Positions 13,662-44,571 are shown, counted from the stretch's first letter. The stretch: DNA of 64,000 bases from Dehalococcoidia bacterium (GCA_965217675.1 OZ244559.1:2756355-2820354), one strand, 5' to 3'. Numbers and translations are program-made. The notes: generated by a model not told the origin, from the letters alone.

Positions 13662-14393
13662 ATGGGTAGTAGCGACGACTATTCCGAGTCCTTCTACAAG
13701 CGACACGCGCAACGCTACGCCGAGGTCAGCCACAACTACATTCAGTCCGTCTACAGCAACGTCTCCCATCCGGCCCTTACCGGAGACGCGGACGTCATGG
13801 ACCGCCTCACGGAGCTTGTTCCCCCCAGCTCCCGAGGGCTCGACGCCGGCTGCGGCGCCGGCGCCCGCGATGTCTTTCTTCTATGGCAGAATGGTTACGA
13901 TGTCTATGGGATTGACGCCGTGGAGGAGAACATCCTGGAGGCGCGCAGGATGCACCCCGAGATCACACGGAGGGTGTCGGTCGCTGACCTCCGGGAGCCC
14001 CTCGCCTATCCCGACGCGTCCTTTGACTTCCTCTTGTGCAACGGGGTCATCCAACACATCGAACCGGACATCGTGCTGGGGCGTACCCTCGGGGAGTTCG
14101 CGAGGTTGCTGAAGCCGGGAGGCGTGCTCCAGCTCGTATTCAAGGTCGGAACGGGAGTCGTGTCCGTCTACGACAAGGACTATGCCTCTGACAGGGCATT
14201 CCACCTGTACGGCGCGGATGAGGTGCTGGAGCGGTTGACGGACCTAGGGTTGCGGGTGATTCCGGAGGAGGGGGGAAAGCTGGGAGGCGTCATGTATTTC
14301 ACAGACCCCAAGCCGATGGACCATTGCCTCCTGTTCGCGTACAAGACCGACGAAGGCAGCGGCTCTCCGTCGGAGGCTGCGGAACAGCGATGA
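13662..14393 (+). CDS. Class I SAM-dependent methyltransferase
   Basis: LDAGCGAG, LKPGG. Confidence 0.88.
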   Translation: MGSSDDYSESFYKRHAQRYAEVSHNYIQSVYSNVSHPALTGDADVMDRLTELVPPSSRGLDAGCGAGARDVFLLWQNGYDVYGIDAVEENILEARRMHPEITRRVSVADLREPLAYPDASFDFLLCNGVIQHIEPDIVLGRTLGEFARLLKPGGVLQLVFKVGTGVVSVYDKDYASDRAFHLYGADEVLERLTDLGLRVIPEEGGKLGGVMYFTDPKPMDHCLLFAYKTDEGSGSPSEAAEQR

Positions 14394-15481: not shown

Positions 15482-15598
15482 GAGGGACGGAGAACCGCAC
15501 TTGCAGACACAGTTCCTTGGGGATGTGAAGGCTCTGAGAATGTAGCTAGCGGAACGTACTGAGGTAACTGGCGGCTTTGTGCTCGGGAGTGTTATTGG

Positions 15599-16348
15599 AT
15601 GGATAGGCCAAATATTCAAGAGATCAAGAAGAACCGGGAAGTTGCTCATGCATTGGAGTTAATTCGCCGGCTTGGCATTGTTCCTGTGCCTAGGGTGGAG
15701 TCAGGTGAAAGGCCTGACATACGGATGGAGGTTGGCGAGTCCATCGTAGGCGTTGAAGTGACTCAGTTTTTCTTTCCCTTTGGTGACCCTGCAGTCAATA
15801 ACCATTTGCCATCGCTCCAGAATCAGGCCGTCCACTATGCTTGGCAGCGATTTCGACAGTGTGGAGGCATACCGCTCTACGCGATGTTCGAGTTCTCTGA
15901 AGACAAAGAGCGCTGTGGACCACTGGATACTAAGAAGATGAGGGACTTGGCTGGGAGGTTGTGCGAACTGGTGAGGTCAATAGGAGCACCAGCTGATCTG
16001 GAATATGGGGTGGATAGCGAATTGTCATCGGTACCTGAACTCGACCGATGTTGGGTTGATCCAAGCTTGGATGGTGTCAGTGAATTATGGGGAGCTCCCC
16101 GTGCCACAATGGGAACCAACGTCTCCTCAAGGCAAGTGCAAGAATGCTTGAATTCCAAGCGAGACAGATACGAAGCCTATGCCTGCAACGTCTCAACGGT
16201 GTGGCTGTTGATCGTCAACGACTGGCCAATGCAAGCCGCAGCTTCGAGGATTGGCGAAGAAGCACGCACGGCAATCTATTCCTTCCCATACGAGAGGGTG
16301 TTCTGGTTGGATCTTGACGGCGATTTGGTCGAACTTCAAAGGCAGTAG
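15599..16348 (+). CDS. Hypothetical protein, PD-(D/E)xK-like nuclease fold
   Basis: ESGERPDI...VGVEVT pattern; lower GC than flanks. Confidence 0.6.
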   Translation: MDRPNIQEIKKNREVAHALELIRRLGIVPVPRVESGERPDIRMEVGESIVGVEVTQFFFPFGDPAVNNHLPSLQNQAVHYAWQRFRQCGGIPLYAMFEFSEDKERCGPLDTKKMRDLAGRLCELVRSIGAPADLEYGVDSELSSVPELDRCWVDPSLDGVSELWGAPRATMGTNVSSRQVQECLNSKRDRYEAYACNVSTVWLLIVNDWPMQAAASRIGEEARTAIYSFPYERVFWLDLDGDLVELQRQ

Positions 16349-16465
16349 TGCCTATTTTGCACCCACCCCAACACCCGCGTTCTGCGGTAGAATGCGCCGT
16401 GTCACAGGCGAGCGGCCCGTCGGTTAGGGCCTTCGCGCCGCCGCTCTGCCGTAAGAAGGATAGCC

Positions 16466-17617
16466 ATGCCCGATTCTCTGCCAACCGACGTTCAGCGCGG
16501 CGCATCTCGCGTGGGTGACCCCGCGTTTGACGGCATCGTCTTGCGCATCGCAGAGGCGTCGGACGAGATTGAGCGCGAGCGCCGGATCCCCGTGGACATC
16601 GCCCGCGACATGATTGACGAGGGCCTCTTCCGCCTGCTGGTGCCCCGCTCCCTGGGCGGCGGCGAGGTCGACTACCTGGACTATTTAACGATGGTCCGGG
16701 CCATCGCGACGGCGGACGGCAGCACCGGCTGGTGCTTCAACCAGAACAACATCCTCGGCACCATGGCGTCCATCATGCCGAGGCGCCTGGCGGAGGAGGT
16801 CTGGAGCGACCCTCGCGCCGTCCTCTGCAATGGTCCGCCGCAGTTCGCGCAGGTCTCGGAGGTGGAGGGCGGCTACTCGCTCACGGGCCGGTGGAACTTC
16901 AGCAGCGGCTCACCGCAGGCCAATTGGGCGGTGGCCATCAGCCGCGTCGCCGACGCCAATACGATAACGTTCGTCATCCCCAAGGACCAGGTCACCTTCT
17001 TCGACTCGTGGCAGGTGAACGGGCTCCGAGGCACTGGCAGCTTCAGCTTCGAGACCAAGGACCTCTTCGTGCCGGCGAGCCACAGCTACGTCGAGGCCCG
17101 CACGCCAAACGAGAGCGGCCCGCTGTACCTGATCCCCCGCGGCCTGTTCTTCGGCTCCGGGTTCGGGTCGGTCGCGCTGGGCGTTGCCCGCTCCAGCCTC
17201 GACCTCGCGAAGGAGGCCGCGCTGCGCAAGACGCCGCAGGAGCAGTCACTGCTGCGGGACCAGCCCGCAGTCCAGGGCGACATCGGCCGTGCCGAGGCGC
17301 TTTGGGGCGCCGCCTCCGCCTACCTGTGGGAGAAGGCCACGAATCTCTGGCGCTGCGCCGTCGACCGCGGTTTCATCACCATGGAAGAGCGCGCTAACCT
17401 GCGGTTGGCCAGCACACACGCCATCCGCCAGGCGGTCGAGGTAGTCGACATCGCCTACGGCGTTTTCGGCGCGACGGCCATCTTTGAGACCAGCCCCATC
17501 CAGCGCAAGTTCCAGGACGCCCACGCCATCACCCAGCAGATCCAGGGCCGCCTGGAGCACTACCAGACGGTGGGCCAGTACTTCCTGGGCATGGAGCCCC
17601 GGGCCAGACTGCTCTAG
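16466..17617 (+). CDS. Acyl-CoA-dehydrogenase-fold flavin-dependent hydroxylase (HsaA/C2-like)
   Basis: LVPRSLGG, GRWNFSSG, WQVNGLRGTGS, IQRKFQD. Confidence 0.85.
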   Translation: MPDSLPTDVQRGASRVGDPAFDGIVLRIAEASDEIERERRIPVDIARDMIDEGLFRLLVPRSLGGGEVDYLDYLTMVRAIATADGSTGWCFNQNNILGTMASIMPRRLAEEVWSDPRAVLCNGPPQFAQVSEVEGGYSLTGRWNFSSGSPQANWAVAISRVADANTITFVIPKDQVTFFDSWQVNGLRGTGSFSFETKDLFVPASHSYVEARTPNESGPLYLIPRGLFFGSGFGSVALGVARSSLDLAKEAALRKTPQEQSLLRDQPAVQGDIGRAEALWGAASAYLWEKATNLWRCAVDRGFITMEERANLRLASTHAIRQAVEVVDIAYGVFGATAIFETSPIQRKFQDAHAITQQIQGRLEHYQTVGQYFLGMEPRARLL

Positions 17618-17795
17618 CCGCCAAAGGCGCCGCCCGTGCGCGCCTCGCTTACCCTTCCCGGATTTCCGCAAGATTGGGACTCTGCAATGCGCCGCGAGAG
17701 GCCACAGGGTTTACGAATTCCTTAGAATTGGTACGATTGTACTTGGGCACGCCACCGTTCCGCGTCAGCCGTCAGACCAAGAAAGGGTCCAATTT

Positions 17796-19715
17796 GTGAA
17801 GGCAGCCCTCAGGCCACAAGGCCTCATTGACGTAGTGTTTGTAGCCCTCACCTTTGCGGTGGGGGTGCAGTTGCTCCGTCTCTTCATCACGGGCATGGTC
17901 TTTTACCTCCGAGAGGTCCGGGAGTTCAGCACGGTGTCCATCGGGGGGATTGCCTTTCTCGTGTTTGGCACGGCCTTCCTGGCGCCCATCGCCGTGCGGT
18001 GGCTGGGACCCCGCCGGACGCTGCTCGCCGCTGTTGCCGTCATGGGGCTCGCGCGGCTGGCCGAGCAGAGCGTGACGTCGCCGCAGATTGACCTTGTGCT
18101 GGCGGGCGTTGGCGTCGTCGCATTCCTCCCCGTCATCCCCCTGTCGATGGCGATGCTCGATACCAAGTCGACGACGGGCGCCGGCCACTGGCGCTACGGC
18201 CTGCTGCTGGGGCTCGCGCTCGATACGGCGGTCAAGGGCGGCCTCGGCACGCTGGACGCCTCCTGGCAGGCCGGGGCATGGATTGGCCTCGTGGGCTTGG
18301 GGCTGCCGCTGGTGCTGTTGGCGCTCGTGCAGCGAGAGGCATCGAGGACTGGCTGGGAGTCGCCTGCCACCCCGGACGTTCGCTCGGCTCTGCCGTTGCT
18401 GGCGATTGGCCCATTCCTGTTTCTGGAGATGCTCCTCTTCCAGAACGTGGCGCAACAGACAGCGCTCATCGATTGGCCGCAGCCCGCCGTGCTTGCGTGG
18501 ATTGCGGTGGCCAACAGTGCGGGAGTCCTTGCGGTCTGGGGGGTCATGGGCAAGCGCATCCCTTGGCCCGTCATTGTGCTGGCGGCCGTGCTCCTGGCGG
18601 CTGCGGTGAATTGGGAACGCAGTGGCTGGCAGGCAGCCGTTGTGGTGCTTGTCGGCCACATGGCGGCGGTGACCCTCATGGCCAAGTCCATTTCCGGCGA
18701 CCCCATGCCCCGCGACTCCTGGGGCCTCAGCGCCGTCTGGACCGGCGCCATTGGCGCCGTGCTCTTTCTGGCTCTCGCCTTTGTCTACTACGCCGGGTAC
18801 GACATCGACGTGGGTGTTACGCAGCAGGCCGTGCTTCTTGCCGCGGTGGCGCTCCTGATGCTGCCCGTGCTCGTCCCACAACGGCGGACGGGACCTATGC
18901 CGGAGCGAAACGCATTGGCTGTGATGGCGCCGTTCCTGCTCCTAGTGGCCCCTTTGGCCCTCACCTTGAGCTGGAGCATTCAGAACCCCGGCCCCCCGCA
19001 AAGCCTGCCCATTCGCGTCATGAGCTACAACATCCACCAGGGGTTCGGCACCGCCGGCGACTTGAACTTGGAGGCGTTGGCCCTCGCCATAGAGGCCGAG
19101 CGTCCGGACGTAGTCGCCCTGCAGGAGGTGTCCCGAGGGTGGTTGGTGAATGGCTCTGTCGACACGATGGAGTGGCTCTCCCAGCGGCTGGGCATGCCCT
19201 ACGTCTGGGGCCCGGCCGCCGACTCCGTCTGGGGCAACGCCGTCCTCAGCCGCCTGCCGGTGACCGGAGTCGAGCACCACGGCATGCCCAACAACAGCGA
19301 ACTTCTCGTGGAGCGCGGCTTCCTCTGGGTGGAGCTCGACACGGGTCAGGGCACGCGGCTGCAGGTCATCGCGACGCACTTCCACTCCGGTGATGGCGAC
19401 AGCCACCTGCGGGTGCCCCAGTCCCTCGCCGTCCTGAAGCGCTGGAACAACAAGGAGCGGACCATCCTGCTGGGCGACTTCAACGGCAGGCCGGAGTCGC
19501 GGGAAGTCCATGCCATTGTCAACGCGGGCTTCAGCGACGCCTTTGTGGAGACGGGAGCGGCTGGGCCCGGATTCACCTTCGCCTCCGACGACCTTGTCGA
19601 GCGCATCGACTACATCTTCGTGACGCCGGACCTTGCGGTGCGGGACTACTCGGCGAGGGTGACGCAGGCCTCGGACCACCTGCCCATCGCCGTCACGGTG
19701 GACGACGCGCCGTAG
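17796..19715 (+). CDS. Multi-TM protein with C-terminal endonuclease/exonuclease/phosphatase (EEP) domain
   Basis: Many TM helices, then MSYNIH, ALQE, GDFN, RIDYIF, SDHLP; start approximate. Confidence 0.85.
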   Translation: MKAALRPQGLIDVVFVALTFAVGVQLLRLFITGMVFYLREVREFSTVSIGGIAFLVFGTAFLAPIAVRWLGPRRTLLAAVAVMGLARLAEQSVTSPQIDLVLAGVGVVAFLPVIPLSMAMLDTKSTTGAGHWRYGLLLGLALDTAVKGGLGTLDASWQAGAWIGLVGLGLPLVLLALVQREASRTGWESPATPDVRSALPLLAIGPFLFLEMLLFQNVAQQTALIDWPQPAVLAWIAVANSAGVLAVWGVMGKRIPWPVIVLAAVLLAAAVNWERSGWQAAVVVLVGHMAAVTLMAKSISGDPMPRDSWGLSAVWTGAIGAVLFLALAFVYYAGYDIDVGVTQQAVLLAAVALLMLPVLVPQRRTGPMPERNALAVMAPFLLLVAPLALTLSWSIQNPGPPQSLPIRVMSYNIHQGFGTAGDLNLEALALAIEAERPDVVALQEVSRGWLVNGSVDTMEWLSQRLGMPYVWGPAADSVWGNAVLSRLPVTGVEHHGMPNNSELLVERGFLWVELDTGQGTRLQVIATHFHSGDGDSHLRVPQSLAVLKRWNNKERTILLGDFNGRPESREVHAIVNAGFSDAFVETGAAGPGFTFASDDLVERIDYIFVTPDLAVRDYSARVTQASDHLPIAVTVDDAP

Positions 19716-19725
19716 CCCAAGTGCC

Positions 19726-20151
19726 CTAGTAGAACGACGTACACGTGCCGTTTGTCGTCTGGATGACGGCCCCCTGGTTGAAGAGATCCTTGTACCCGAT
19801 GGCAATCTCAGCAAGTCGCTCCCCGGCGTTGTCGAACCGTGGCGCCAGGATGATGAGGACCTTGGAGCGTTCTCGCTCAATCTCACCCGGAGCGACCTGC
19901 CACTGCCCCTGCCCGTCCAGCACAGTAAGGCCGTTTGGGAACTTTGGGGTGACGATGTCTCTGAGAAAGACCTCCCACGCCTGGTCGGTGACGACTTCCT
20001 CGCCCCCGCTGTTTCGCCCCATGAAGAGCCGGTACTCCACGTTCAGCTCGCTGCCCTCCGGGCACTGCGCCACCTCCTCAGCGCCGCCGCATGCCGCCCC
20101 GGCAAGCAACGCGACAAGGACAGCGGCGAGGAGCAAGGCGACACGGGGCAT
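19726..20151 (-). CDS. DUF3574-like lipoprotein
   Basis: Lipobox GAAC; LFMGRN, VTPKFPNGLTVLDGQGQW, ERSKVL. Confidence 0.75.
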   Translation of the reverse strand: MPRVALLLAAVLVALLAGAACGGAEEVAQCPEGSELNVEYRLFMGRNSGGEEVVTDQAWEVFLRDIVTPKFPNGLTVLDGQGQWQVAPGEIERERSKVLIILAPRFDNAGERLAEIAIGYKDLFNQGAVIQTTNGTCTSFY

Positions 20152-20344
20152 GGTGTGACCTCCGTTGACCGGCGTTTGTGACGTTCAGCCTGCCTACTAT
20201 ACACCTGCGGATGCTCGGTTCCCGAAGCTTGCACCCTCCTGCCGTGTCCCCCCGGCATTCCTTCCCCCCACATGGCCGCCCTGCTATGCTGTGCGCATTC
20301 GCACTCCCGGCGGAGCTGCCGCCGGCATGGGAGGGCATGGGGGC

Positions 20345-21781
20345 ATGGACAGTCTGGTCCGGGAGCTGCAGCGGGCGATCGGCAGACGCTACGTGCTGTC
20401 GCGGCCGCAGGAGCTGCTGGTGTACGAGTACGACGGCGCCGTGGAGCGCGCACTTCCGGGCGTCGTCGCGGTGCCGGACAGCGCCGCGCAGGCCGCGCAG
20501 ATCGTGAGCATCGCCCGCCGCCACGGTGTTCCCGTCGTGCCACGCGGCGCGGGCACCGGCCTCAGCGGCGGCGCCATCCCCATCCACGGTGGCGTGCTCA
20601 TGCCGATGACCCGCCTCAACCGAGTCCTGGAGGTAGACCCGGCTGAGCGCATGGCAATCGTGGAGCCCGGCGTCGTCAACATTGACATCTCCAAGGCGGC
20701 GGCGCCCTATGGCCTGCGCTACGCCCCGGACCCCTCCAGCCAGAAGGCGTGCACCATCGGCGGCAACGTGGCGGAGAACGCCGGCGGCCCCCACTGTCTG
20801 GCCTACGGCGTCACCACCAACCACGTCATGGGCATGGAGATCGTGCTCGCCGACGGCTCCCTTGCGTGGGTCGGCGGACGCCGGCACGAGCTCCCTGGCT
20901 ACGACCTTCGCGGCGTGCTCATCGGGTCCGAGGGAACGCTGGCCGTGACGACCAAGGTCGCCGTGCGGCTACAGCCCATACCCGAAGCGGTCACCACAAT
21001 GCTTGCGATCTTCCAGGACGAGGACGACGCCAGCGCCGCCGTCTCGGCCATCGTCGGGGCGGGCATCGTGCCCGCGGCCATCGAGATGATGGACCGGCTC
21101 ACCATCCAGGCCGTCGAGCCCGCCATCCACGCCGGTTACCCCGAAAACGCAGGCGCCGTCCTCCTCGTCGAGGTGGAGGGCCTGAGCGAGCCCGTCGCGG
21201 AGGAGTCCGAGGAGGTGCAGCAGGTCTGCTACCAGAACAACGCCACCCAGGTGCGCGTGGCTGAGGACCCCACGCTGCGCGAGCGGCTGTGGGCCGGACG
21301 CAAGACGGCCCTGGGCGCGCTGGGCCGCCTCGCCCCCAACTACTACCTGCTGGACGGCGTTGTCCCGCGCACCAAGATACTGGAGGCCCTGCGCCGCATC
21401 CGTGAGATCTCCGGCGAGTACGCCCTTCCCATCGCCAACGTCTTCCACGCCGGCGACGGCAACCTGCACCCGTGCATCCTCTTCGACGAGCGCGTGGGCG
21501 ACCAGCTGCGCCGCTCCAAGGAGGCGGGAGCGGCCGTCCTCCGCACCTGCGTCGACCTGGGAGGCGCGCTGTCCGGCGAGCACGGCGTTGGGCTGGAGAA
21601 GCAGGAGTACATGGACCTTTGCTTCACCGCCGCCGACCTGGACGCCATGGCGCGGCTGAACCCAGCCTTTGGCGCGGGCGACACCTTCAACCCCGGCAAG
21701 GTCTTCCCCACGGGCGCTTCCTGCGTGGAGCTCCTGCAGCACCCGGCCATCGCCCGGTTGGGACCCGACGCCTTTGTCTAG
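20345..21781 (+). CDS. glcD: Glycolate oxidase-type FAD subunit
   Basis: PRGAGTGLSGG, PDPSS, GGNVAENAGGPHC, HAGDGNLHP, SGEHGVG. Confidence 0.9.
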   Translation: MDSLVRELQRAIGRRYVLSRPQELLVYEYDGAVERALPGVVAVPDSAAQAAQIVSIARRHGVPVVPRGAGTGLSGGAIPIHGGVLMPMTRLNRVLEVDPAERMAIVEPGVVNIDISKAAAPYGLRYAPDPSSQKACTIGGNVAENAGGPHCLAYGVTTNHVMGMEIVLADGSLAWVGGRRHELPGYDLRGVLIGSEGTLAVTTKVAVRLQPIPEAVTTMLAIFQDEDDASAAVSAIVGAGIVPAAIEMMDRLTIQAVEPAIHAGYPENAGAVLLVEVEGLSEPVAEESEEVQQVCYQNNATQVRVAEDPTLRERLWAGRKTALGALGRLAPNYYLLDGVVPRTKILEALRRIREISGEYALPIANVFHAGDGNLHPCILFDERVGDQLRRSKEAGAAVLRTCVDLGGALSGEHGVGLEKQEYMDLCFTAADLDAMARLNPAFGAGDTFNPGKVFPTGASCVELLQHPAIARLGPDAFV

Positions 21782-23165
21782 CCAATCCGTTCACCCTGAG
21801 GGAACTCGAAGGGCGGCTGACCTCCACCGCGGCCTTGTGGACGCCGGCGTCGGCGTTGGCGCAGATACGGCCCCCTACGCCTTGGCGGGCCGCGAACCGC
21901 TTGCCGTGGCGCTGCCCACCACCGTCGATGAAGTGAGCGCAGCCCTCGTGGTGGCCGCGCGGCTCGGGGCGGCTGTCGTCCCCTGGGGCGGCGGCACGCG
22001 GCAGGGGCTGGGCACCACGCCCTCGAGCTACGACCTGGCGCTGGACCTGCGGGGCCTGAATCGCGTGGTGGCCCATGAGCCCGCCGACCTCACGGTCACG
22101 GTGCAGGCCGGGTGCACCGTGGGCGCGCTGCAGGAAGCGTTGGCGCGCGAGGGGCAGTGGCTTCCGCTGGACCCGCCCCTTCCGGCCCGAGCGACGGTCG
22201 GAGGGACGCTGGCGGCAGGCAACGCCGGGCCGCTGGGCACGGGTTTCGGCCTCCCGAGAGAGATGGTCATCGGCATGCGCGCCGTCCTGGCCGACGGGAC
22301 CGTGGTCAAGAGCGGGGGCAACGTGGTCAAGAACGTCACGGGCTTTGCGATGGACCGGTTGCACGTCGGTGGGCTCGGGACGCTGGGCGTCATCGCGGAG
22401 GTCACCTTCAAGATCGTGCCCATCCCGCGGAAGGAGGCCACCGTGGTTGCGGCGTTCGCCTCCGCGCAAGCAGCCGCCGATGCGAGCGCGGGCGTGACAT
22501 CCATTGGCCTGCCGATGCTCTCCATAGAGCTGTTAAATGACGCCGCCTGGGCCAAAGCTATCGATGGACTGTCCTTACGGCCTGAGCCGATTATGGCAAC
22601 CGCAGTCCAGCCCGTTCATACTGAGCCCGCCAATGGGTTGAGCGAAACGGGCGCGTGGCACCTCGTCGCCCGCGTTGCGGGGCGGCCCGTGGCGGTGTCG
22701 CGCTCCGTCGATGCCTGGGCCGCCGCCTGTGAGAGCCACGGCGCGGCGGTGGCGTGGCTGGAGGACGCAGGGAGCGGGGCGCTGGCCAGCAGAGTCGCGG
22801 ACCTTGGTTGGGCGGACGGCCCACCGGCCTTCGCCGTGCGCATCGCCGCCCCGTCATCACAGGGGGCGGCAGCCTTGGACGTCCTCGGCGACGCGCCACC
22901 CGCCGCGCTCAGCGTCACGCGGGGCGTGGTCCGTGCGGCGTGGCCCGCGGACGCGATGCCAGATGATGCCTCGGCGTACGTCGGCACTCTGCGGGAGCGG
23001 GTCGCCGACCTGGGCGGGACGGTGTTGGTCGAGTCGAGCGCGCCCATTGAGGGCGTTGACCCGTGGGGCCCGCCCGGCGACGGGTTCGCGGTTATGCATG
23101 GGCTCAAGCGGGAGTACGACCCGCAGGGCCTCCTCAATCCCGGCCGGTTCCTGGGAGGACTGTAG
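21774..23165 (+). CDS. glcE: Glycolate oxidase-type FAD-binding subunit
   Basis: PADLTVTVQAG, GGNVVKNVTG, DPQGLLNPGR; lies between glcD and glcF; TTG start uncertain. Confidence 0.85.
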   Translation: MSSQSVHPEGTRRAADLHRGLVDAGVGVGADTAPYALAGREPLAVALPTTVDEVSAALVVAARLGAAVVPWGGGTRQGLGTTPSSYDLALDLRGLNRVVAHEPADLTVTVQAGCTVGALQEALAREGQWLPLDPPLPARATVGGTLAAGNAGPLGTGFGLPREMVIGMRAVLADGTVVKSGGNVVKNVTGFAMDRLHVGGLGTLGVIAEVTFKIVPIPRKEATVVAAFASAQAAADASAGVTSIGLPMLSIELLNDAAWAKAIDGLSLRPEPIMATAVQPVHTEPANGLSETGAWHLVARVAGRPVAVSRSVDAWAAACESHGAAVAWLEDAGSGALASRVADLGWADGPPAFAVRIAAPSSQGAAALDVLGDAPPAALSVTRGVVRAAWPADAMPDDASAYVGTLRERVADLGGTVLVESSAPIEGVDPWGPPGDGFAVMHGLKREYDPQGLLNPGRFLGGL

Positions 23166-26944: not shown

Positions 26945-27567
26945 TCATTCTGTCTCCATTTGACCTACCTTGTTGCGGCGGTCGGGATGCGGCCGGTGGT
27001 GGCGCCGCGCCGCCGACGCGGCCGCGCCCCGACGCGGGTGCAGGACAGGGTTTTGGGCAGTTGTATTCACGGGCCGTCGTCGCTGGGGAAACCCTTGTTA
27101 TGCCGGCGCGTCGTAGCTGAATGAACGCTGTTTTTGCAATCACTTTGTAGCTGATGTGACGCATTGCAGCTACAAACCTAAAATCCGATCACACCGCATT
27201 TTGAAACAAATCCTGGATCTCGCGGGCCGAGCGTGCCTGAATCTCGATGCTGAGCATGCGGGATAGCATCTTGGCGGCGCGCAAGAGGATGGCGGGGTCC
27301 GCGTGGGGGTCGGCCAAGAGGCCGACGAGCTTGATGCGCATGCGGTCGGTGAGCGGGTTGAGGTTGCCGTCGCGGCGGGCAGCCGTGCGGGCGTACCGCT
27401 GCTGCGGGGACAGGGGGATGTCGAAGACACCGCGCTTGCGGGATTTCTGGTTGCCGGGCTGGCTGCCGCGACGCCGTCGTGGCAGGGTTGTGGGGGTCCT
27501 GGTTGCGTTGCTCATGGGGAGAGGGTAGCGGGGGGTTGGGCGTGGGGGCTAGGGGGTGGTGTCAGGG
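26945..27567 (-). repeat. Dispersed element copy 2 (longest; contains a 108-aa ORF)
   Basis: Reverse complement of CCCTGACACC at 27558-27567; ATG 27515; palindrome 27144-27176; half-sites 27110-27119 and 27076-27085. Confidence 0.85.
27189..27515 (-). CDS. Small basic hypothetical protein with G-x-QPGN-x3-R-K-x-G motif
   Basis: RRGSQPGNQKSRKRG followed by predicted helices; TACCCT 6 nt before the ATG (leaderless type). Confidence 0.6.
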   Translation of the reverse strand: MSNATRTPTTLPRRRRGSQPGNQKSRKRGVFDIPLSPQQRYARTAARRDGNLNPLTDRMRIKLVGLLADPHADPAILLRAAKMLSRMLSIEIQARSAREIQDLFQNAV

Positions 27568-27582
27568 TGGGGGGCTGTCGGC

Positions 27583-27697
27583 GGGACGGGCGATTCGCGA
27601 ATCGCCCCTACGGTGTGTTTGGTAGTTGGGTAAATCGTGATTGGGTGGTGGTGGAGATGCCCTGTCCCTCTGGATTCCTGCCTTCGCAGGAATGACG
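27583..27697 (-). repeat. REP mosaic (modules C and A)
   Basis: GGGCGATTCGCGAATCGCCCCTAC 27588-27611 (reverse complement of a GTAG-type REP); CTGGATTCCTGCCTTCGCAGGAATGACG ending at 27697. Confidence 0.9.
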
Positions 27698-27796
27698 AGG
27701 GTGGGGGGTGCGAGACGGCATAGGGAAAACTAACGCATGCGCAGAAGTGAGACCGTTCTTGCTCACTGAACACTATAGCTGAGGTGACCTCCCAAA

Positions 27797-28534
27797 CTAT
27801 CCGCCGGACTTAAACAACTCGTTCAATATTCGTAGTCTATGCGCTGCATTGGGCATGGGCAGCTCTAAAACGTCGTCTTCAACGCTTCGCAAGTAACTGG
27901 ATACTGAGAATACCCACAATTTGGCAAACTGTGGTGAAGTCGGCCACGATTCCGACCTTCCGGGGAAACTGTGATTTGGGTTGGATACGCTGAATAAGTG
28001 CTCCCTTGGGCTTTCCTTGGGGCCCATGGCTTCCCAGAAGATGAGCAATGGTTGGATTATTTTCTGGTCAACGCCCTTTGGAGGTTTCATTGGAACCAGC
28101 ACCTTACCTGTGTATGCCGCACGCAAAGTGTGATTCTCTTTGTTCCAATGGCGGTCCCAACGCCGTTGCTTGTATTCAACTATTTGCGATGAAGAGGCGG
28201 GTAGGGGTAGACGCTCGCCCCCAAAAGCATGTGCGGAATAGTTCTTGATCTCTGTCTGAAAGACGGTCCTTGACTGGTCTGACCAAAGCACATCTATCCA
28301 ACGGTCTAGCCTGGGGCCCTTCCGCCCTCCAGTGCCCACAGTACTCTCGAGAACCCTAGACGTTGCTCCTTTAGCTTCAAGGTAGTGCGCAAAGCATGCC
28401 GCATTCAAGTCTTCGCCAACGATGGCGACGATGCTGGTTGCGTGAGTTATGGACCATTCTGGTTTTTCGTCAAAGAAGCTGAGAAGTTCCTTCCGCTGAA
28501 TCGTTATCATCTCCTGGGATGGAGAATTTGCCAT
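27797..28534 (-). CDS. Hypothetical protein, PD-(D/E)xK restriction-endonuclease-like
   Basis: RLDRW...FQTEIKN (D...ExK); lower GC; GAGGAGG RBS. Confidence 0.6.
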   Translation of the reverse strand: MANSPSQEMITIQRKELLSFFDEKPEWSITHATSIVAIVGEDLNAACFAHYLEAKGATSRVLESTVGTGGRKGPRLDRWIDVLWSDQSRTVFQTEIKNYSAHAFGGERLPLPASSSQIVEYKQRRWDRHWNKENHTLRAAYTGKVLVPMKPPKGVDQKIIQPLLIFWEAMGPKESPREHLFSVSNPNHSFPGRSESWPTSPQFAKLWVFSVSSYLRSVEDDVLELPMPNAAHRLRILNELFKSGG

Positions 28535-28707
28535 TTGCTCAGCCTCCTCTTTTAGCGCTTGGGCTGCGACCCGCGAAATCATTTCTTAAATTGAGGTGCG
28601 CAGGGGCGCTCTAAAATAGCATAGTTGACTGTCGTTGTGCGGCCTCGCCAGCTACTCCCACAGGAGGGAGCGGAGGGCAGCCAGTCTTTCGAGGGGAAGA
28701 GTAGGAA

Positions 28708-29475
28708 TTGCCGACCAACAACCGCGATACGCTCATCAAAGCATGGCTGTACGAGGAGCGTCAGCCCTTTACGGGCTGGGACTTCTCGTACTTGCATGGT
28801 CGGATGACGGAGGGACGGGAACATTGGTCGTATCTGGACCGCGCTGCTGAGCTCATGCGGCGCTCGTCGTCCGTGATCGACATGGCCACCGGCGGTGGTG
28901 AGAAGCTGCTGAGCCTGCGGGAATACTGGCCAGCAAAGGTCATCGCCACTGAGGACTACCTCCAGAGCTTCGAGCTTGCGACCAGACGACTCTCGCCCCT
29001 GGGCGTCAGGGTCGTCAGAGCTCCGGTTTCCGCTACTGGCCCGATGCCCTTCGGAGACGGTGAGTTTGACCTGGTCCTCAATCGGCAAGCTGCCCTTAAC
29101 CCTAGCGAGGTCGCCCGCGTGCTCGCCGAGGGCGGCACATTTCTTACGCAACAGGTCCATGGGTTGTGGGCATGGGACCTGCAGGACACCTTCGATGCGA
29201 AGCCTCAGATGCCGGACGTTTCGGCGGCAATGTACGTGCCAATGCTGGAAGCGGCTGGTCTGACCATGGTGAACGTCGAGGAGTGGGAGGGCCGCTTGGC
29301 GTTCAGCGACGTGGGTGCCATCGTCTACTACCTGAAGGCCGTCCCGTGGCTCGTACCTGGATTCACTGTGGGGACCCACGTGCGATACCTATATGCGCTT
29401 CAGGAGAGGCTGGAGGCTGGCGAGAAACTGGAGTTTTATGCGGCCAAGTTTCTCATTGAGGCGAGCAGGTTGTGA
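28708..29475 (+). CDS. Class I SAM-dependent methyltransferase
   Basis: GWDFSYL, IDMATGGGE, FDLVLNR, GGTFLTQQV. Confidence 0.85.
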   Translation: MPTNNRDTLIKAWLYEERQPFTGWDFSYLHGRMTEGREHWSYLDRAAELMRRSSSVIDMATGGGEKLLSLREYWPAKVIATEDYLQSFELATRRLSPLGVRVVRAPVSATGPMPFGDGEFDLVLNRQAALNPSEVARVLAEGGTFLTQQVHGLWAWDLQDTFDAKPQMPDVSAAMYVPMLEAAGLTMVNVEEWEGRLAFSDVGAIVYYLKAVPWLVPGFTVGTHVRYLYALQERLEAGEKLEFYAAKFLIEASRL

Positions 29476-29557
29476 CCAGCTGTGCCATGTGGGGTTCGAG
29501 TGTTGTAGAGTCCGGGAGTAAGTTGATTCAGTCCGGCACCTTCGATCCGAGGTTGCG

Positions 29558-30151
29558 ATGGATATTCCTGACGGTTACAGCGACATCCCCAGCGGCAAGA
29601 CTGTCTCGGTCGTGACGCATCTTCAGATGTTCCAACGGCCGCCAGAGCGGGCCGAGCGATCCGAGGCGTCGTGGGCGCTTCGCAAGGTCGACGCGCCTGA
29701 TCCCGGCCGGTACCTTGACCTGTTTCGTCGCATCGGCGAGGACTGGCTGTGGTTTTCGCGGCTGCAGTTGGGCGTCGAGGAGCTCCAAGGCGTCCTCAGC
29801 AGTCCGCTGCACGAGACTTATGTGTTCGAGGCGCAGGGGCAGGGGGAAGGCCTGGTGGAGCTCGACTTCGGCGTTGACGGCGAGTGCGATATCAGCTTCT
29901 TCGGGCTGACGCCGCCGATGGTCGGCTGCGGCGCTGGCCGGTGGATGATGAACCGAGCGCTGGAGTTGGCATGGTCCCGCTCCATTCGCAGGCTGTGGTT
30001 GCATACGTGCTCCCTCGATCATCCCGGTGCGCTGGACTTCTACATCCGGTCTGGGTTCGCGCCTTTTCGCAGGCAGGTCGAGGTTGCTGATGACCCAAGG
30101 GTGATTGGCCTGCTGCCGATGTCGGCGGCGCCTCAGGTGCCGCTGCTGTGA
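29558..30151 (+). CDS. GNAT family acetyltransferase
   Basis: FFGLTP..VGCGAGRW, WLHTCSLDHPGALDFYIRSGF. Confidence 0.88.
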   Translation: MDIPDGYSDIPSGKTVSVVTHLQMFQRPPERAERSEASWALRKVDAPDPGRYLDLFRRIGEDWLWFSRLQLGVEELQGVLSSPLHETYVFEAQGQGEGLVELDFGVDGECDISFFGLTPPMVGCGAGRWMMNRALELAWSRSIRRLWLHTCSLDHPGALDFYIRSGFAPFRRQVEVADDPRVIGLLPMSAAPQVPLL

Positions 30152-30170
30152 GGCTTCCCTCCCGCTGCCG

Positions 30171-30368
30171 CGGGACGGGCGATTCGCGAATCGCCCCTAC
30201 GACTCGGTTTGGGGGAGTCGGGTAAGGCGTCCTTGGTTGATGGTGGAGATGCCCCCCAGGCACTGCCCCTCTGGATTCCTGCCTTCGCAGGAATGACGGT
30301 GGTGGGGCGTGCGGGTCAGCGAGCGCTGCTGGTGGTGAAGGGCCCTTCGACAGGCTCAGGGCGAACGG
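30171..30368 (-). repeat. REP mosaic (C, A, D, B in + order)
   Basis: Module C 30177-30200, module A 30266-30298, module D about 30320-30335, module B CCCTTCGACAGGCTCAGGGCGAACGG 30343-30368. Confidence 0.9.
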
Positions 30369-30444
30369 GGCCGCTGCGCTTCTGGGTTCCTGACTCTGTG
30401 GAAATGACGAGAGTGGGGAAGGGCGTGCTCGTGCCTGCCGTCCT

Positions 30445-32685
30445 CTACTCCCAGAGGAGGGTGCGGAGGGCTTGGAGCCAGGCTTGCGACGCGTCGGCTA
30501 GGGGGACGTTGACTAGGCGGGCTATGCGGACGTGGGCGTCGGCGGTGACGCGGCCCAGGCGGAGGACGGGGACGTTGTGGCGCGTGGCGAGGCGTCGGAG
30601 GGCGCCCGTCTTGGTTGGGTCGAGGGAGACGAGGATGCGGGACGGGGCTTCGCCGAAGAGGGCGGCGTCCCAGCGGCCCTTGGGGCGGGCGGTGATCGTC
30701 GCGCCGATGCCGCCCAGAATGCAGGACTCGGCGAGGGCGACGGCCAGGCCGCCATCGCTGCAATCGTGGGCGGAGGCGAGGAGGCCGCGGCGGACGGCGT
30801 CGCGGCAGAGGCGCTGCACGAGCGCCTCGAGGTCGATGTCGAGGGCGGGCTGACCGGCGACGACGCCGTGCAGGGTCTCGAGGGCCTCGCTGCCAGCGAG
30901 CGTCGAGGCGTCGCCGTCCAACTTTGTAGCGCCGAGCAGCATGACGACGTCGCCCTCGTTGCGGAAGCCCGCGCCGCAGTGCCGCGACACGTCTTCCAGC
31001 AGGCCGAGCGCACCCACGACGGGCGTGGGGTAGATTGCCTGGGAGCCGCCCTCGTTGTAGAGGCTCACGTTGCCGCTGACCACGGGGACGCCGAGGGCGC
31101 GACAGGCGTCGGCCATGCCCTTGATGCACTCCTCGAGCTGGTAGTAGACCTCTGGGCGCTCCGGGTTGCCGAAGTTCAGGCAGTCGGTCAGCGCGATGGG
31201 CTCCGCGCCGACGCACGACACGTTGCGGCAGGCCTCGGCGACGGCGAGCTGGCCGCCCACGAAGGGGTCCAGCCACGTCATGCGGCTGTTGCCGTCGGTG
31301 GCGGCGGCGATGCCGCGCCGTGTGGCCGGGCCGCCGTAGCTCTCGCGCAGGAGGAGTACGGCGGCGTCGCCGGCGCCCGGCCCCACGACGGTGTTCGCCA
31401 GCACCTGCTGGTCGTACTGGCGGTAGACGCCGGAGCGGCTGGCGATGTTCGCGGAGCCGAGCAGCCGCAGGAGGGCCTCGCCGGGGGTCATGTCGGGCAT
31501 TGGCAGCGCCGACAGGTCAACACGCTGCGCCGCGGCGGTCTCGGCGGAAAGCGAGCCCGTGAGCCGGTAGCGGGGCGCGTCGACGAGGTGCTCGACGGGG
31601 ACGTGGGCCACGGGCTCGCCGGCGTCGTGGATGCGGACGGTGGCGTCGTCGGTCACGGAGCCGATGACGCTGGAGGTGAGGTCCCACTTATCGAAGACGG
31701 CGCGCACGGAGTCCTCGAAGCCGGGGCGCACCAGCAGCAGCATCCGCTCTTGGGACTCGGACAGCATGACCTCGTACGGGTTCATGCCGGACTCGCGCCG
31801 GGGCACCTGGGAGACGTCGAGGAGCAGGCCGCGACCGCCCTTGCTCACGCACTCGACGGCGGCGCTGGTGAGGCCGGCCGCGCCGAGGTCCTGCATGCCC
31901 GCGATGCCTTCCGGGCACGTCTGGAGCGCCTCCAGGCAGGCCTCGATGAGCACCTTCTCCAGGAAGGGGTTGCCGACCTGCACGGTGGTGCGCAGCTCCT
32001 GCGTGTCCTCCAGGGTCTGGGAGGCGAGGCCGGACGCGCCGTGGATGCCGTCGCGGCCGGTGTCGGCGCCCACGAGCAGCAGCAGGTCGCCGCCGCCGGA
32101 GGGCTGTGCGCGCACGAGGTCGTTGGTGCGGACGATGCCTATGCACATGGCGTTCACGAGGGGGTTGTCGTCGTAGCAGGGCGCGAAGGTTATCTCGCCG
32201 CCGACGTCGGGCACGCCGATGCAGTTGCCGTACCAGGAGATGCCCTCGACGACGCCGTGGAAGAGCCGCCGGGTGCGCTTGGAGTCGGCGGGGCCGAAGC
32301 GCAGGGAGTTCAGCAGGGCGATGGGGCGCGCGCCCATCGCGAGGATGTCGCGGACGATGCCGCCGACGCCGGTCGCGGCGCCCTGGAAGGGCTCGACCGC
32401 CGAGGGGTGGTTGTGGGACTCGATCTTGAAGACGACGGAGAGGCCACCGCCGACGTCGACGACGCCGGCGTTCTCGGCGCCGGGGGCCACGAGCACGCGG
32501 GGGGAGTCGCTCGGGAACAGGCCAAGCAGCGGCCGGGAGTGCTTGTAGGCGCAGTGCTCGCTCCACAGCGCGCCGAAGAGGCCGAGCTCGAGGCCGTTCG
32601 GCTCCCGGTCGAGCCGGTCGACGATGCCCTGGTACTCTTGGGGGCTGAGGGCAATCTCCCTGAGGGTCTCCGGGTCGACGGGCAC
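30445..32685 (-). CDS. purL: Phosphoribosylformylglycinamidine synthase subunit PurL
   Basis: WSEHCAYK, KIESHNHPS, GAATGVGGIVRD, DLGAAG, SESQERM, VSGNVSLYN; GTG start with GGAGG. Confidence 0.95.
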   Translation of the reverse strand: MPVDPETLREIALSPQEYQGIVDRLDREPNGLELGLFGALWSEHCAYKHSRPLLGLFPSDSPRVLVAPGAENAGVVDVGGGLSVVFKIESHNHPSAVEPFQGAATGVGGIVRDILAMGARPIALLNSLRFGPADSKRTRRLFHGVVEGISWYGNCIGVPDVGGEITFAPCYDDNPLVNAMCIGIVRTNDLVRAQPSGGGDLLLLVGADTGRDGIHGASGLASQTLEDTQELRTTVQVGNPFLEKVLIEACLEALQTCPEGIAGMQDLGAAGLTSAAVECVSKGGRGLLLDVSQVPRRESGMNPYEVMLSESQERMLLLVRPGFEDSVRAVFDKWDLTSSVIGSVTDDATVRIHDAGEPVAHVPVEHLVDAPRYRLTGSLSAETAAAQRVDLSALPMPDMTPGEALLRLLGSANIASRSGVYRQYDQQVLANTVVGPGAGDAAVLLLRESYGGPATRRGIAAATDGNSRMTWLDPFVGGQLAVAEACRNVSCVGAEPIALTDCLNFGNPERPEVYYQLEECIKGMADACRALGVPVVSGNVSLYNEGGSQAIYPTPVVGALGLLEDVSRHCGAGFRNEGDVVMLLGATKLDGDASTLAGSEALETLHGVVAGQPALDIDLEALVQRLCRDAVRRGLLASAHDCSDGGLAVALAESCILGGIGATITARPKGRWDAALFGEAPSRILVSLDPTKTGALRRLATRHNVPVLRLGRVTADAHVRIARLVNVPLADASQAWLQALRTLLWE

Positions 32686-36409: not shown

Positions 36410-36469
36410 ACAGGCGCTGCGGGGCCGCAGGGCTAAAGGCGTTTGGAGTCGCGAACGGTGAGGGTTGGG

Positions 36470-36740
36470 GCGGCGTCGAGGGACATACGTTGCGCGGGCC
36501 GTCGTAGCTGAGTGAAGACCCAAATGGCATTCGTATTTGTAGCTGGTGTGTCGCATTGCAGCTACAAAGCCAATATTTTCTATTTTATGCCGGGGAGAAG
36601 CCAATCCTCCTTCAACGACTGCGCAGGCGCGCACGACGCTATGGGGATTGGCGATGTTCCGGTTGCGGTGGATGCGTGCGATTGCCATGCGGGTACGGTA
36701 GCGTGGGGCGGAGCGTCGAGGCAAGGAGGCGGTGTCAGGG
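36470..36740 (-). repeat. Dispersed element copy 3
   Basis: GGTGTCAGGG 36731-36740; ATG 36688; palindrome 36536-36568; half-site 36501-36510. Confidence 0.85.
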
Positions 36741-36741: not shown

Positions 36742-37003
36742 CGGGCGATTCGCGAACCGCCGCTTCGGACAGAGGTGGCGTTCGGGGTGCTGCGACAGTT
36801 GGTGGTAGTGAGGTTGCCCCGCCTTCGCCCTACCCCTCTGGATTCCTGCCTTCGCAGGAATGACGAGTGTGGGTGCTCGGGCCGACAAGCGCTGCTAGTG
36901 GCTGAGGGGTGAGGTTACCGCTGCTGCGGGACGGCCCCCTTCGAGTGCCCTCAGGACAGGCTTCGAGAGCCTCAGGGTGATCGGAATCGCGAATCGCCCC
37001 TAC
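36742..37003 (-). repeat. REP mosaic (C', A, D, B', C)
   Basis: Degenerate module C from 36742; module A 36833-36865; CGACAAGCGCTGCTAGTGG near 36883; B-like 36938-36978; module C ending 37003. Confidence 0.85.
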
Positions 37004-37099
37004 GACGGCGTGTGGGGAGTTGGGTATGCGTGGGGGGTTGGTAGTGGGGGCGCTCCCTCGGTTGTTGCTGGGCCGGTAGGCGTCACTGACAGACTTCGC

Positions 37100-37240
37100 C
37101 GGACCTGGACGGGATTCCTTTCAGCCACCCTTGGAAGGCTTCGAGTGCGGGAGGGGCTGAGGCAGAGTCCCCGCGGTGAAACACGGACGTACGCGGGGAT
37201 TGCGGAGGCCATCGGGCGGCCTGGCGCGCTCGCACGGCGG
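37100..37240 (+). pseudogene. Fragment of methylated-DNA-protein-cysteine methyltransferase (Ogt/MGMT)
   Basis: RVREGLRQSPRGETRTYAGIAEAIGRPGA resembles the MGMT DNA-binding segment; no PCHR motif follows. Confidence 0.6.
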
Positions 37241-37250: not shown

Positions 37251-37853
37251 TCACGGGCAGAACGGGAGACCATGGAAATTCCAGTTGTCCGACAGACTGC
37301 TTGGAAAGCACCCACTCAACTGGTTGTTGCGGAGGCCCAAACTTCTCAGGTAGGCGAGGTTACCCAACTCCGGCGAAATCTCCCCGCTCAGCTGGTTGTC
37401 GCTGAGGATCAGCGCTTGCAGATTGATGAGGTTGGCCAACTCCTGTGGAATCTCCCCGCTCAACTGGTTGCGGCTGAGGCTCAGCGATTGCAGGTTGGCG
37501 AGGTTAGCCAACTCCGGTGGTATCTCTCCGTCGGCGAGGCCTGGTGGCACCTCCCCGTCGGCGAGGCCGTACCTCGACACTAACAACTCGTAGCTTGGCG
37601 GGAGGGTCAGTTCGGTGACGCGGCCGCTGGGGTCAGTGGTAACGCCATGCCAGTCGTCAATCGGCATGTCGCTCAGCCAGTTATCGCGGCTATGCCAATT
37701 CGGGCCGTCGGTGGCGTTGTAGAGGGCGACGAGCGCTTCCCGGTCCGTGGATGGCCCATCCTTCGACTCAGTGGTGGCGTCGCAGGCCAGCAGCAACAAC
37801 GGGAGCACAAGCGCAAGGGCGAGGACTCCGAGGAGAGGGTGTGGCGGTCTCAT
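37251..37853 (-). CDS. Leucine-rich-repeat lipoprotein (plant-type 24-aa LRR)
   Basis: Lipobox LLAC; DREALVALYNATDGPNW cap; three LxxLxLxxNQLSG repeats; internal 27-bp duplication (GLADGE.PP twice). Confidence 0.88.
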   Translation of the reverse strand: MRPPHPLLGVLALALVLPLLLLACDATTESKDGPSTDREALVALYNATDGPNWHSRDNWLSDMPIDDWHGVTTDPSGRVTELTLPPSYELLVSRYGLADGEVPPGLADGEIPPELANLANLQSLSLSRNQLSGEIPQELANLINLQALILSDNQLSGEISPELGNLAYLRSLGLRNNQLSGCFPSSLSDNWNFHGLPFCP

Positions 37854-37983
37854 CTGGATGCACTTCCTGCGTTTGTTGGGCTGCGGTGGGACGGCGGGGC
37901 GCGTCCGAAGCATAGCACACGGCTGGTTGTGGGGTGGGCGCGTGAGTCGTGTGTGGGCGGTGTGAGGGGATGCGCGGCCCGGG

Positions 37984-38009
37984 CCCTTCGACAGGCTCAG
38001 GGCGAACGG
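37984..38009 (-). repeat. Module B repeat
   Basis: Exact CCCTTCGACAGGCTCAGGGCGAACGG. Confidence 0.9.
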
Positions 38010-44568: not shown

Positions 44569-44571
44569 GCG

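Follow-up and report, generated by a model that had tools for sequence, protein, structure and literature searches.

Repeat modules and variable genes at three loci

We analysed a 64-kb window (the whole stretch of DNA under study, G000:C1:2756355-2820354) of a Dehalococcoidia bacterium whose genome, here called G000, consists of one contig of 2.86 Mb with a G+C content of 64% and an estimated completeness of 94%. Three loci in the window combine mosaics of short repeat modules, termed A to D and including repetitive extragenic palindromic (REP) hairpins, with a second structure built around a conserved palindrome, here called the palindrome element. Locus 1 lies between PrpD and suhB, locus 2 between a redoxin-like gene and purL, and locus 3 between a dioxygenase gene and ybeY (Table 1). 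An initial annotation of the window had suggested that the modules and the element bracket accessory genes and might form a gene-capture platform; modules A, B and C and the palindrome were found where it had placed them. Comparison with the closest relative, G006, and with other congeners (G001, G002, G004 and G007) showed that the three loci are sites of gene turnover, with a cargo that consists in part of defence genes.

Table 1. Features of the three loci (window coordinates) and two further copies of the element's open reading frame (ORF) elsewhere in the genome. HNH, endonuclease domain; SAM, S-adenosylmethionine; LRR, leucine-rich repeat.
Locus	Feature	Position	Strand	Details
1	REP mosaic	3258-3610	+	B 3258-3285, D-like spacer, A 3331-3360, B 3427-3454, two degenerate CGTC-tagged hairpins
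1	Fused N6/N4 DNA methyltransferase-HNH endonuclease, 467 aa	3735-5138	-	Pfam N6_N4_Mtase 1.9e-41, HNH 2e-13
1	Palindrome element, ORF read as decayed	5372-5700	+	L1 5372-5386, L2 with ATG 5410-5426, palindrome 5551-5582, two CAGCTACG, tail
2	Palindrome element	26945-27567	-	tail 26945-27143 ("head" of the initial annotation), palindrome 27144-27175, 108-aa ORF 27189-27515, L2 27513-27529, L1 27553-27567
2	Inner C-spacer-A unit	27570-27725	-	C 27588-27612, A 27668-27697
2	261-aa protein ("nuclease-like"), low GC	27797-28582	-	no known family
2	purL scar, 27-nt copy (25/27) of the purL 3' end (30445-30471)	28652-28678	+	beside the 5' side of the 261-aa gene
2	Class I SAM-dependent methyltransferase, 255 aa	28708-29475	+	Methyltransf_11 1.4e-5
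2	GNAT acetyltransferase, 197 aa	29558-30151	+	Acetyltransf_1 5.8e-6; core gene, not cargo
2	Outer mosaic	30158-30431	-	C 30177-30201, A 30269-30298, D 30299-30340, B 30341-30368, degenerate A-like 30371-30431
3	Palindrome element, ORF read as decayed	36440-36740	-	tail, palindrome 36536-36567 (30/32), L2 36686-36702, L1 36726-36740
3	Mosaic	36743-37004	-	C' 36743-36767 (22/25), A 36836-36865, B' ~36957-36984, C 36980-37004
3	ogt (O6-methylguanine-DNA methyltransferase) fragment, relic	37142-37231	+	PF01035 E 8.5e-5, 22.8 bits
3	LRR lipoprotein, 200 aa, cargo	37251-37853	-	LRR_1 1.1e-11
3	Single B module upstream of ybeY	37982-38009	-	motif scan
	Intact 115-aa ORF, copy 1	G000:C1:2491879-2492226 (L015:5408-5755)	+	ORF scan
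	Intact 115-aa ORF, copy 2	L014:2579-2926	-	ORF scan

Identity and abundance of the repeat modules

Module copies were catalogued by a genome-wide mismatch scan at a threshold of at least 75% match, using consensus motifs for A, B and C that were copied from locus 2 and therefore match that locus at 100% by construction. The strand of a module was taken as the one reading the tagged forms 5'-CGTC.., 5'-CGTAG.. and 5'-CCGTTCGCC.. The scan returned 223 copies of module A (61 exact), 285 of module B (63 exact) and 74 of module C (10 exact); since so many copies across the genome are exact, the locus-2 motifs represent the family consensus despite the built-in match. The 26-nt core of module A, with up to three mismatches, gave 126 matches compared with 0 for the reversed control, and the reversed pattern had 0 matches across 41 genomes of the order.

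Module A is composed of CGTC / ATTCCTGC / GAAG / GCAGGAAT / CCA (fold -7.7 kcal/mol, z -4.5), that is, an unpaired CGTC tag, an 8-bp stem starting with AT, a 4-nt loop and a CCA tail. Its resemblance to the dRS3 repeat of Neisseria, pointed out in the initial annotation, is borne out by this structure, which fits the definition of CGTC-1 (dRS3-type) repeats as having an unpaired terminal CGTC, an 8-bp stem with A-T as the first two pairs, a 4-nt loop and a CCA tail (PMC3733652). The copies of A make up a high-copy, dispersed, intergenic family. Module C reads CGTAG / GGGCGATT / CGCG / AATCGCCC (fold -8.7 kcal/mol, z -2.4), with the GTAG tag of REPs of that type at the base of a GC-rich 8-bp hairpin. 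No stable hairpin was found for module B (z -0.6), and module D is present but only as a weak C-rich spacer family (3-16 blastn-short matches). Both A, of CGTC-1 type, and C, of GTAG type, belong to the REP hairpins, with B and D as companion modules. Two degenerate CGTC hairpins at locus 1, near 3495-3610, were recognised by eye. A search of the whole window with Rfam at gathering thresholds returned two tRNAs only; neither the modules nor the palindrome element are thus covered by any known RNA family.

Copies of A type occur in 21 of the 41 related genomes, with stem variants that retain pairing. In other genera of the order (G019, G020, G024, G031 and G040) the A-type hairpin has altered yet complementary stems (ATTCCCGC/GCGGGAAT, ATTCCGGC/GCCGGAAT and GTTCCTGC/GCAGGAAC), which we read as covariation preserving the hairpin. 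The window also contains three tandem 23-nt units (8953-9048) that are like the first half of module B and sit just upstream of two tRNA genes (9119-9192 and 9234-9315); G006 has a 633-nt insertion straight after this tRNA pair.

Array architecture and polarity

The modules group into 296 clusters across the genome, 117 of which have at least two modules. Polarity was uniform in 113 of these 117 multi-module clusters, which are thus head-to-tail arrays, and module orientation is far from random genome-wide. In some clusters the pattern B-A-C recurs three to four times, and 19 modules occur in a single cluster, so that dRS3-type repeats alternate with members of other repeat families in long arrays between genes. 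Neighbouring clusters shared polarity in 218 of 266 cases (shuffle mean 137, maximum 164), and for 215 of 265 clusters polarity agreed with the sign of the GC skew in the surrounding sequence. Masking the repeats gave a match between skew and polarity of 220, 218, 201 and 180 of 265 when the skew was taken over +/-5, 10, 20 and 50 kb, respectively, and gene strand showed only a weak tie to skew.

Within our window, negative skew at locus 1 gives way to positive skew at loci 2 and 3, as the opposite module polarities predict. The initial annotation had drawn attention to the single orientation shared by all modules; this is true within each locus, but it is a genome-wide rule that follows local GC skew and not a property of these loci. 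Because polarity is set by the local skew domain, all modules of one locus point alike. The sign of the skew flips at window positions of about 12000-22000 (approximately -0.09 before 10 kb and +0.1 at 26-38 kb), and REP polarity flips along with it. The cumulative skew curve of the full contig has an irregular shape, with its lowest point near 60 kb and its highest near 2.43 Mb.

Arrays were enriched in convergent spacers (61/247 versus 253/1798 of all spacers) and depleted in divergent ones (30/247 versus 334/1798), with spacers defined by our own gene calls. They are also dynamic between close relatives: only 31 of 84 REP modules fell in blocks aligned between G000 and G006, although 85% of the sequence range compared could be aligned.

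The palindrome element

The palindrome occurs in 41 copies in the genome (at least 75% match). Among the 41 genomes searched, matches were seen in this genus alone, with 36, 38, 17, 11, 2 and 1 in 6 genomes. Read in its own direction, the element consists of a C-rich leader (motifs L1 and L2, the latter ending in ATG), a small ORF, the palindrome with a 10-bp stem, one or two CAGCTACG direct repeats and a tail. The hairpin of the locus 2 element folds at -10.1 kcal/mol (z -4.0), and the palindrome of locus 1 matches at 27/32. L1 is C-rich, with 65 matches at up to two mismatches compared with 23 for the reversed control, and counts based on L1 only are noisy. The ORF is intact, at 115 aa, in two copies, and a 108-aa version is present in the window; in the other copies an ORF scan gave only short or unrelated frames, which we read as decay in most copies.

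The 115-aa protein had 153 small homologues, mostly unnamed, and the few named ones were from Chloroflexota or Dehalococcoidales, some labelled YjcR. A stretch of about 55 residues matched terminase-small-subunit families in PHROG (7.2e-8 and 9.9e-7), no Pfam match was found under E 0.01, and the terminase-small-subunit (TerS) clusters in the Atlas scored only 0.76-0.79 (weak leads). The 108-aa copy had no match in the Pfam or PHROG searches. The likeness to phage TerS is confined to a motif and falls short of a full-length match, which does not place the ORF in a TerS family. The element would appear to be a decaying small gene for a putative DNA-binding protein with a TerS-like motif, followed by the palindrome.

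A REP module was found within 600 nt upstream (5') of 26 of the 41 elements and was co-oriented with the element in 26 of these 26 cases; a module downstream was found in only 4 of 41. At all three window loci, identity between G000 and G006 is near-perfect from L1 inward and random directly outside it. At locus 1, near-perfect identity begins a few bases before L1; at locus 2, the element is kept in place in G006 (91% over the block) and homology ends at 27570; at locus 3, it ends at 36747. In an independent test region, in which 800 kb of G006 was aligned to G000 1.165-1.846 Mb (~680 kb), homology stopped 209 and 211 nt upstream of the palindrome in two of the five aligned elements, which is about the place of L1 in those copies. 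The REP modules abutting the same orthologous element at locus 3 differ, with C in G000 and B in G006.

The first intact ORF copy lies directly downstream of a gene for a 952-aa N6 DNA methylase/MmeI-like protein (Pfam 7.9e-6 and 2.5e-5). In G007, at a locus unrelated to window locus 1 (L065, G007:C6:50000-57500, positions 2475-5420), an IS1595-family transposase gene, a full-length homologue of the methyltransferase-HNH gene (50% aa identity), a 91-aa basic ORF and a palindrome-like match (24/32), ~400 nt downstream of the homologue, follow in a row. Relative to G000, G006 has extra DNA of ~39.8 kb at G000 1469843-1470113 and of ~64 kb at G000 1759805-1759825, and the first of these points coincides with a palindrome element (G000 1469911).

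Gene turnover at the three loci

At loci 1, 2 and 3, the segment between the repeats differs between G000 and G006, and both flanks are 90-95% identical. The same flanking genes enclose alternative, unrelated cargo at locus 1 (G000 and G006), in both spacers of locus 2 (eight genomes) and at locus 3 (G000, G006 and G002). The comparison of orthologous loci for cargo swaps that the initial annotation had proposed thus gave a positive answer at all three.

The adjacency of PrpD and suhB at locus 1 was found only in G000 and G006. The slot holds the type II methyltransferase-HNH gene in G000 (PADLOC MTase_II 8.2e-58), in a low-GC segment (55% over 3284-5364), and an AbiJ_NTD4/PDC-S32 gene (2.8e-80) between two co-oriented A modules in G006. 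Homology between G000 and G006 ends at 3283, inside the first B.

The redoxin-like/purL pair of locus 2 keeps its synteny across eight congeners, the distance between the two genes being 717-4226 nt. The imperfect direct repeat described in the initial annotation (27583-27697 and 30171-30298) is real and corresponds to a composite C-spacer-A unit (27570-27725 and 30158-30330), of which a third copy lies at locus 3 (81% mean column identity over the three copies). The three genes within it were not all accessory. GNAT was kept in place in seven of seven syntenic relatives (79-86% nt identity), including G001, G004 and G007, which have no module at this locus, and it is therefore a core gene. 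The spacers on both sides of GNAT vary among congeners: G001 has the shortest gap with little besides GNAT inside, and G002 has a glutamate dehydrogenase gene beside it. The methyltransferase gene at 28708-29475 was matched in G006 only by a remnant of ~90 nt of the gene start.

The 261-aa protein had no Pfam, PHROG or PADLOC match, and the Atlas offered no more than a weak link with endonucleases of HinfI type (score 0.89, 22% of cluster members). The homologous gene in G006 is 67% identical at the nt level, compared with 86-93% for the neighbours of the two genes, and lies on the opposite side of GNAT, again adjoining a C module. The order is GNAT, C, 261-aa gene and purL in G006, and C, A, 261-aa gene, purL-end copy, methyltransferase, GNAT, C, A, D, B and purL in G000. 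The purL scar is the sole other match of at least 20 nt in the genome to that stretch of purL (E 3e-4). On the simplest reading, a segment would have been duplicated or rearranged locally and redundant copies lost afterwards, with the direct repeat as a by-product. Such an event would give rise to the repeat without a capture step and, given the purL scar and the gene order of G006, explains the bracket better than capture would. Joints from 27176-27707 to ~30341 were seen in public reads (short Logan contigs), all with sides of <30 nt and linking repeat modules; they most likely derive from other repeat copies or other organisms. Where Logan contigs covered the flanks, the cargo part was without cover in one run and at low depth in another, a pattern that is non-diagnostic in contigs.

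The LRR lipoprotein gene of locus 3 was unmatched in place in G006 and G002, which carry other genes there; in G002, an AriA/PtuA-like ATPase gene is found near this locus. The ogt fragment reported in the initial annotation did match PF01035, with 30 residues at profile positions 5-34 of 81, but weakly, its score being below the 27-bit cut-off. The cargo of G006 had matches in G000 only via repeat modules, the 261-aa homologue, LRR paralogues and a 239-nt piece at 70.7 kb. We rejected shuffling of cargo between palindrome-element loci within the genome, as the G006 cargo is without a copy elsewhere in G000.

Several differences from G006 lie elsewhere in the window. Segments of 885 nt (15478-16362, 52% GC, no called gene) and 755 nt (7192-7946) are specific to G000, absent from G006 and have no module nearby. 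A dCTP deaminase-like gene and its neighbour (44026-44922, minus strand) lie in a 745-nt segment that is unaligned with G006 although alike in length there (745 versus 750 nt). A 1187-aa ORF (57038-60601, minus strand), probably a large surface protein, has six tandem 282-nt repeats (57140-58849) and LRR-like 72-nt repeats (59286-60161), and its repeats align out of register with G006 and G002.

Search for mobilising enzymes

In the window, no match was found to Y1_Tnp, TnpB-type, two IS110 models, rve, DDE_Tnp_1, Phage_integrase or Resolvase, so the remark in the initial annotation that no transposase is present held for the eight transposase and recombinase families searched. The REP-associated tyrosine transposase (RAYT; Y1_Tnp, PF01797) had 0 matches in the G000 genome and 0 in the 41 relatives, with the control search positive in 6 of 14 named genomes, and no TnpB-type match was found. 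This speaks against the cargo being mobilised by RAYT; for module C, no counterpart was found of the RAYT gene of a REPIN-RAYT system (REPIN, REP doublet forming a hairpin), a gene that REPs usually flank. The result agrees with the account of CGTC REPs as repeats without a dedicated transposase (PMC3733652). Outside the window, the genome has 1 IS110-family, 7 large serine recombinase, 6 tyrosine recombinase, 5 rve and 1 DDE_Tnp_1 matches. Among the enzymes that had been suggested as candidates, IS110 and tyrosine recombinases thus have matches and RAYT has none; all six tyrosine recombinase matches are far outside the window. The single intact IS110 gene lies at 157 kb; the 5.5 kb examined on its surroundings contain no module, and it was rejected as a mobilising enzyme.

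Genome-wide tests and interpretation

We favour, with a probability of roughly 0.6, the reading that the three loci are ordinary turnover sites, at which the repeats either have no active part or serve passively as anchors for recombination, and that no dedicated device for gene capture is involved. On this reading, the REP hairpins A and C and the modules B and D form head-to-tail mosaics throughout the genome, similar to the Neisseria intergenic mosaic elements (NIMEs), with the local skew domain setting their polarity, and the decaying small-gene/palindrome element usually lies directly 3' of an array in the same orientation. The REP arrays change quickly from one sister species to the next, and these permissive spacers also gain, lose or exchange pieces the size of genes, in many cases defence genes. 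The data show the anatomy of the loci, the copy numbers, the rule of polarity, the differences in cargo, the sharp junctions and the lack of enrichment across the genome; as the route, we infer homologous recombination on the conserved flanks. Dispersed repeats (the edge of B and the 5' end of the palindrome element) may sometimes act as portable homology, illegitimate or template-switch events at hairpin-rich DNA may contribute, and a dedicated capture enzyme would be unnecessary.

Between G000 and G006, the window has 11 gene-sized variable sites, 7 of them without modules. In the independent region, where gene-sized events were defined as at least 500 nt and proximity as a module within 300 nt, there were 50 events, of which 12 had a module nearby and 38 did not. 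Low-GC islands were not enriched at modules (37/228 within 500 nt compared with 54.6 +/- 6.3 for random gene blocks), nor within 3 kb upstream of palindrome elements (11/41 compared with 11.3 expected; 5 downstream).

Several observations weigh against this reading. The low-GC counts themselves depend on an imperfect proxy for foreign DNA and on our own gene calls, which missed low-GC genes. In the window, 4 of the 11 variable sites carry modules, namely locus 1, the two spacers beside GNAT and locus 3, and about 5 of 6 module-bearing core spacers are variable, above chance, a figure that is a hand tally of alignment maps in a window chosen for these loci. In the independent region, 14 of 44 module-bearing spacers were variable compared with 96 of 514 others (odds ratio 2.0, p 0.047). 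A site-specific event would also be compatible with the sharp break seen at the 5' end of the element at three of three window loci. DNA methyltransferase genes adjoin palindrome elements three times (window locus 1, the MmeI-like gene by the 2.49 Mb copy and the G007 homologue of the methyltransferase-HNH gene).

The association between modules and variability in the independent region was lost when spacer length was controlled. Among spacers of at least 100 nt, 14 of 39 module-bearing and 61 of 238 other spacers were variable (p 0.18), and at a length of at least 300 nt the counts were 8 of 19 and 35 of 78. Gene-sized variation does not appear to be concentrated at the repeats.

This loss of the association is what would be expected if repeats and foreign genes accumulate independently in long, permissive, mostly convergent spacers, with the repeats playing no part at all. 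Such a coincidence is also in line with low-GC islands being, if anything, depleted near modules and with the cargo differences at locus 2 in G001, G004 and G007, where there is no module. We nevertheless regard it as unlikely, though well worth keeping in view, because breakpoints at module edges (the B end at 3283 and the L1 edge three times) are neater than independence predicts.

An active capture platform, in which a site-specific recombinase acting at the dRS3-like A hairpin or at L1 inserts or exchanges cassettes, would account for those neat edges: homology breaks a few bases from L1 at three of three window loci and near the L1 position in two of five elements elsewhere, the orthologous element at locus 3 adjoins a different REP module in each species (C in G000, B in G006), and defence genes are swapped within one slot at locus 1. 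The IS110-family, large serine and tyrosine recombinase matches elsewhere in the genome could supply an enzyme, and an equivalent idea has been published for dRS3 in NIME arrays (PMC1797815). We consider it improbable, since no recombinase gene was found in the window or beside any repeat examined and the IS110 gene is module-free over the 5.5 kb examined, since low-GC islands are not enriched genome-wide at modules or upstream of palindrome elements, since 38 of 50 events in the independent region are more than 300 nt away from any module, since the cargo lies on both strands, and since the far boundary of the swapped segments is often not at a module (e.g. 29395 and 38091).

The sharp 5' junction and the three methyltransferase neighbours keep a site-specific mechanism alive at a small probability. 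In its most novel form, L1 would be a defined recombination junction for polar addition or exchange of REP modules and small defence cassettes, mediated by the element's own protein with the TerS-like motif or by a host recombinase, with some 40 leader-like exchange points along the chromosome or pac-like starts of one-directional packaging and transfer of the DNA to one side. We give this proposal only a slim chance; if true, Chloroflexota would have a cassette-exchange system of a new kind.

It is equally doubtful that the genes are non-autonomous cargo carriers, as the initial annotation had also proposed, which would bring REP modules of their own and be moved in trans by a RAYT-like HUH enzyme or another transposase acting on single strands: the 261-aa gene adjoining a C module on opposite sides of GNAT in G000 and G006, the AbiJ-like gene of G006 between two co-oriented A modules and a bias of REP polarity relative to skew like that described for elements targeting the lagging-strand template (PMC6006769) are offset by the lack of any Y1_Tnp match in 41 genomes of the order and of any TnpB-type match, by the purL scar, which accounts for the relocation of the 261-aa gene without transposition, by four methyltransferase-HNH homologues at other loci in congeners, one of them module-free over the 6.5 kb covered and one with only a weak B-like match 2.3 kb away, so that part of this cargo set already occurs with other or no flanking modules, and by CGTC REPs appearing without a dedicated transposase in the published account (PMC3733652).

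Relation to known systems

If the loci are ordinary turnover sites, the value of the observations is descriptive. They would extend CGTC-1/dRS3-type REPs and NIME-like mosaics to RAYT-less uncultured Chloroflexota, in an unusually strict head-to-tail organisation with polarity tracking GC skew, and the REP repeats would be a possible marker of replication-strand history in metagenome-only genomes. They also call for caution, as repeat-bracketed low-GC genes mimic a capture device in one window and the resemblance disappears under genome-wide controls. A separate study of the small-gene/palindrome family and its sharp, conserved junction at the 5' end is merited.

The loci share with integrons a polar structure and variable genes adjoining a fixed end. 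However, no intI lies beside the loci, attC-type sites are lacking, the cargo genes do not share one orientation and the repeats are scattered chromosome-wide. In the bacterial interspersed mosaic elements (BIMEs) and REPINs of E. coli, the orientation of units alternates and a RAYT gene co-occurs. Our arrays resemble BIME/REPIN-RAYT systems as mosaics of palindromic units and other motifs behind genes, but they have uniform orientation and RAYT was not found in 41 genomes.

The closest counterparts of modules A and C are the CGTC-1 and GTAG REP families (Di Nocera et al. 2013, PMC3733652), with which they share tags, 8-bp stems, high copy number and intergenic position. The preference for unidirectional and convergent spacers and, for CGTC repeats, the lack of a dedicated transposase are further points of likeness to the families described there. 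CGTC repeats were reported in five phyla, and Chloroflexi is not among them, although the supplementary lists of that paper may hold Chloroflexi entries. The organisation differs: head-to-head dimers are the rule and head-to-tail arrangement is negligible in the published families (PMC3733652), whereas mixed head-to-tail arrays are the rule here, with one polarity in 113 of 117 clusters.

In gene content and turnover, the loci recall the minimal mobile elements of Neisseria (Saunders and Snyder 2002, as summarised in PMC1797815), in which conserved flanks hold alternative, unrelated small cargo, often restriction-modification genes, at a syntenic site. For those elements, natural transformation and homologous replacement are established, whereas the route of exchange here is one we infer.

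The arrays themselves are most like NIMEs, which are arrays of dRS3 and RS repeats for which an exchange of adjacent or enclosed genes has been hypothesised (PMC1797815). As described there, a short CGTC-1/dRS3-type inverted repeat is interleaved with other repeat families, and arrays that vary in unit number and length between close strains adjoin variable genes. In contrast to NIMEs, the arrays analysed here are in Chloroflexota, are strictly head-to-tail with polarity tracking GC skew, have a GTAG-type REP and the non-hairpin module B as regular members, and in many cases carry the small-gene/palindrome element; no link to a dRS3-integrating phage or a Piv-type recombinase was seen in our data. 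Taken with these comparisons, the evidence favours the view that the repeats and the decaying element are fast-evolving residents that would lend at most homology, much as in the NIMEs and minimal mobile elements of Neisseria (PMC1797815).

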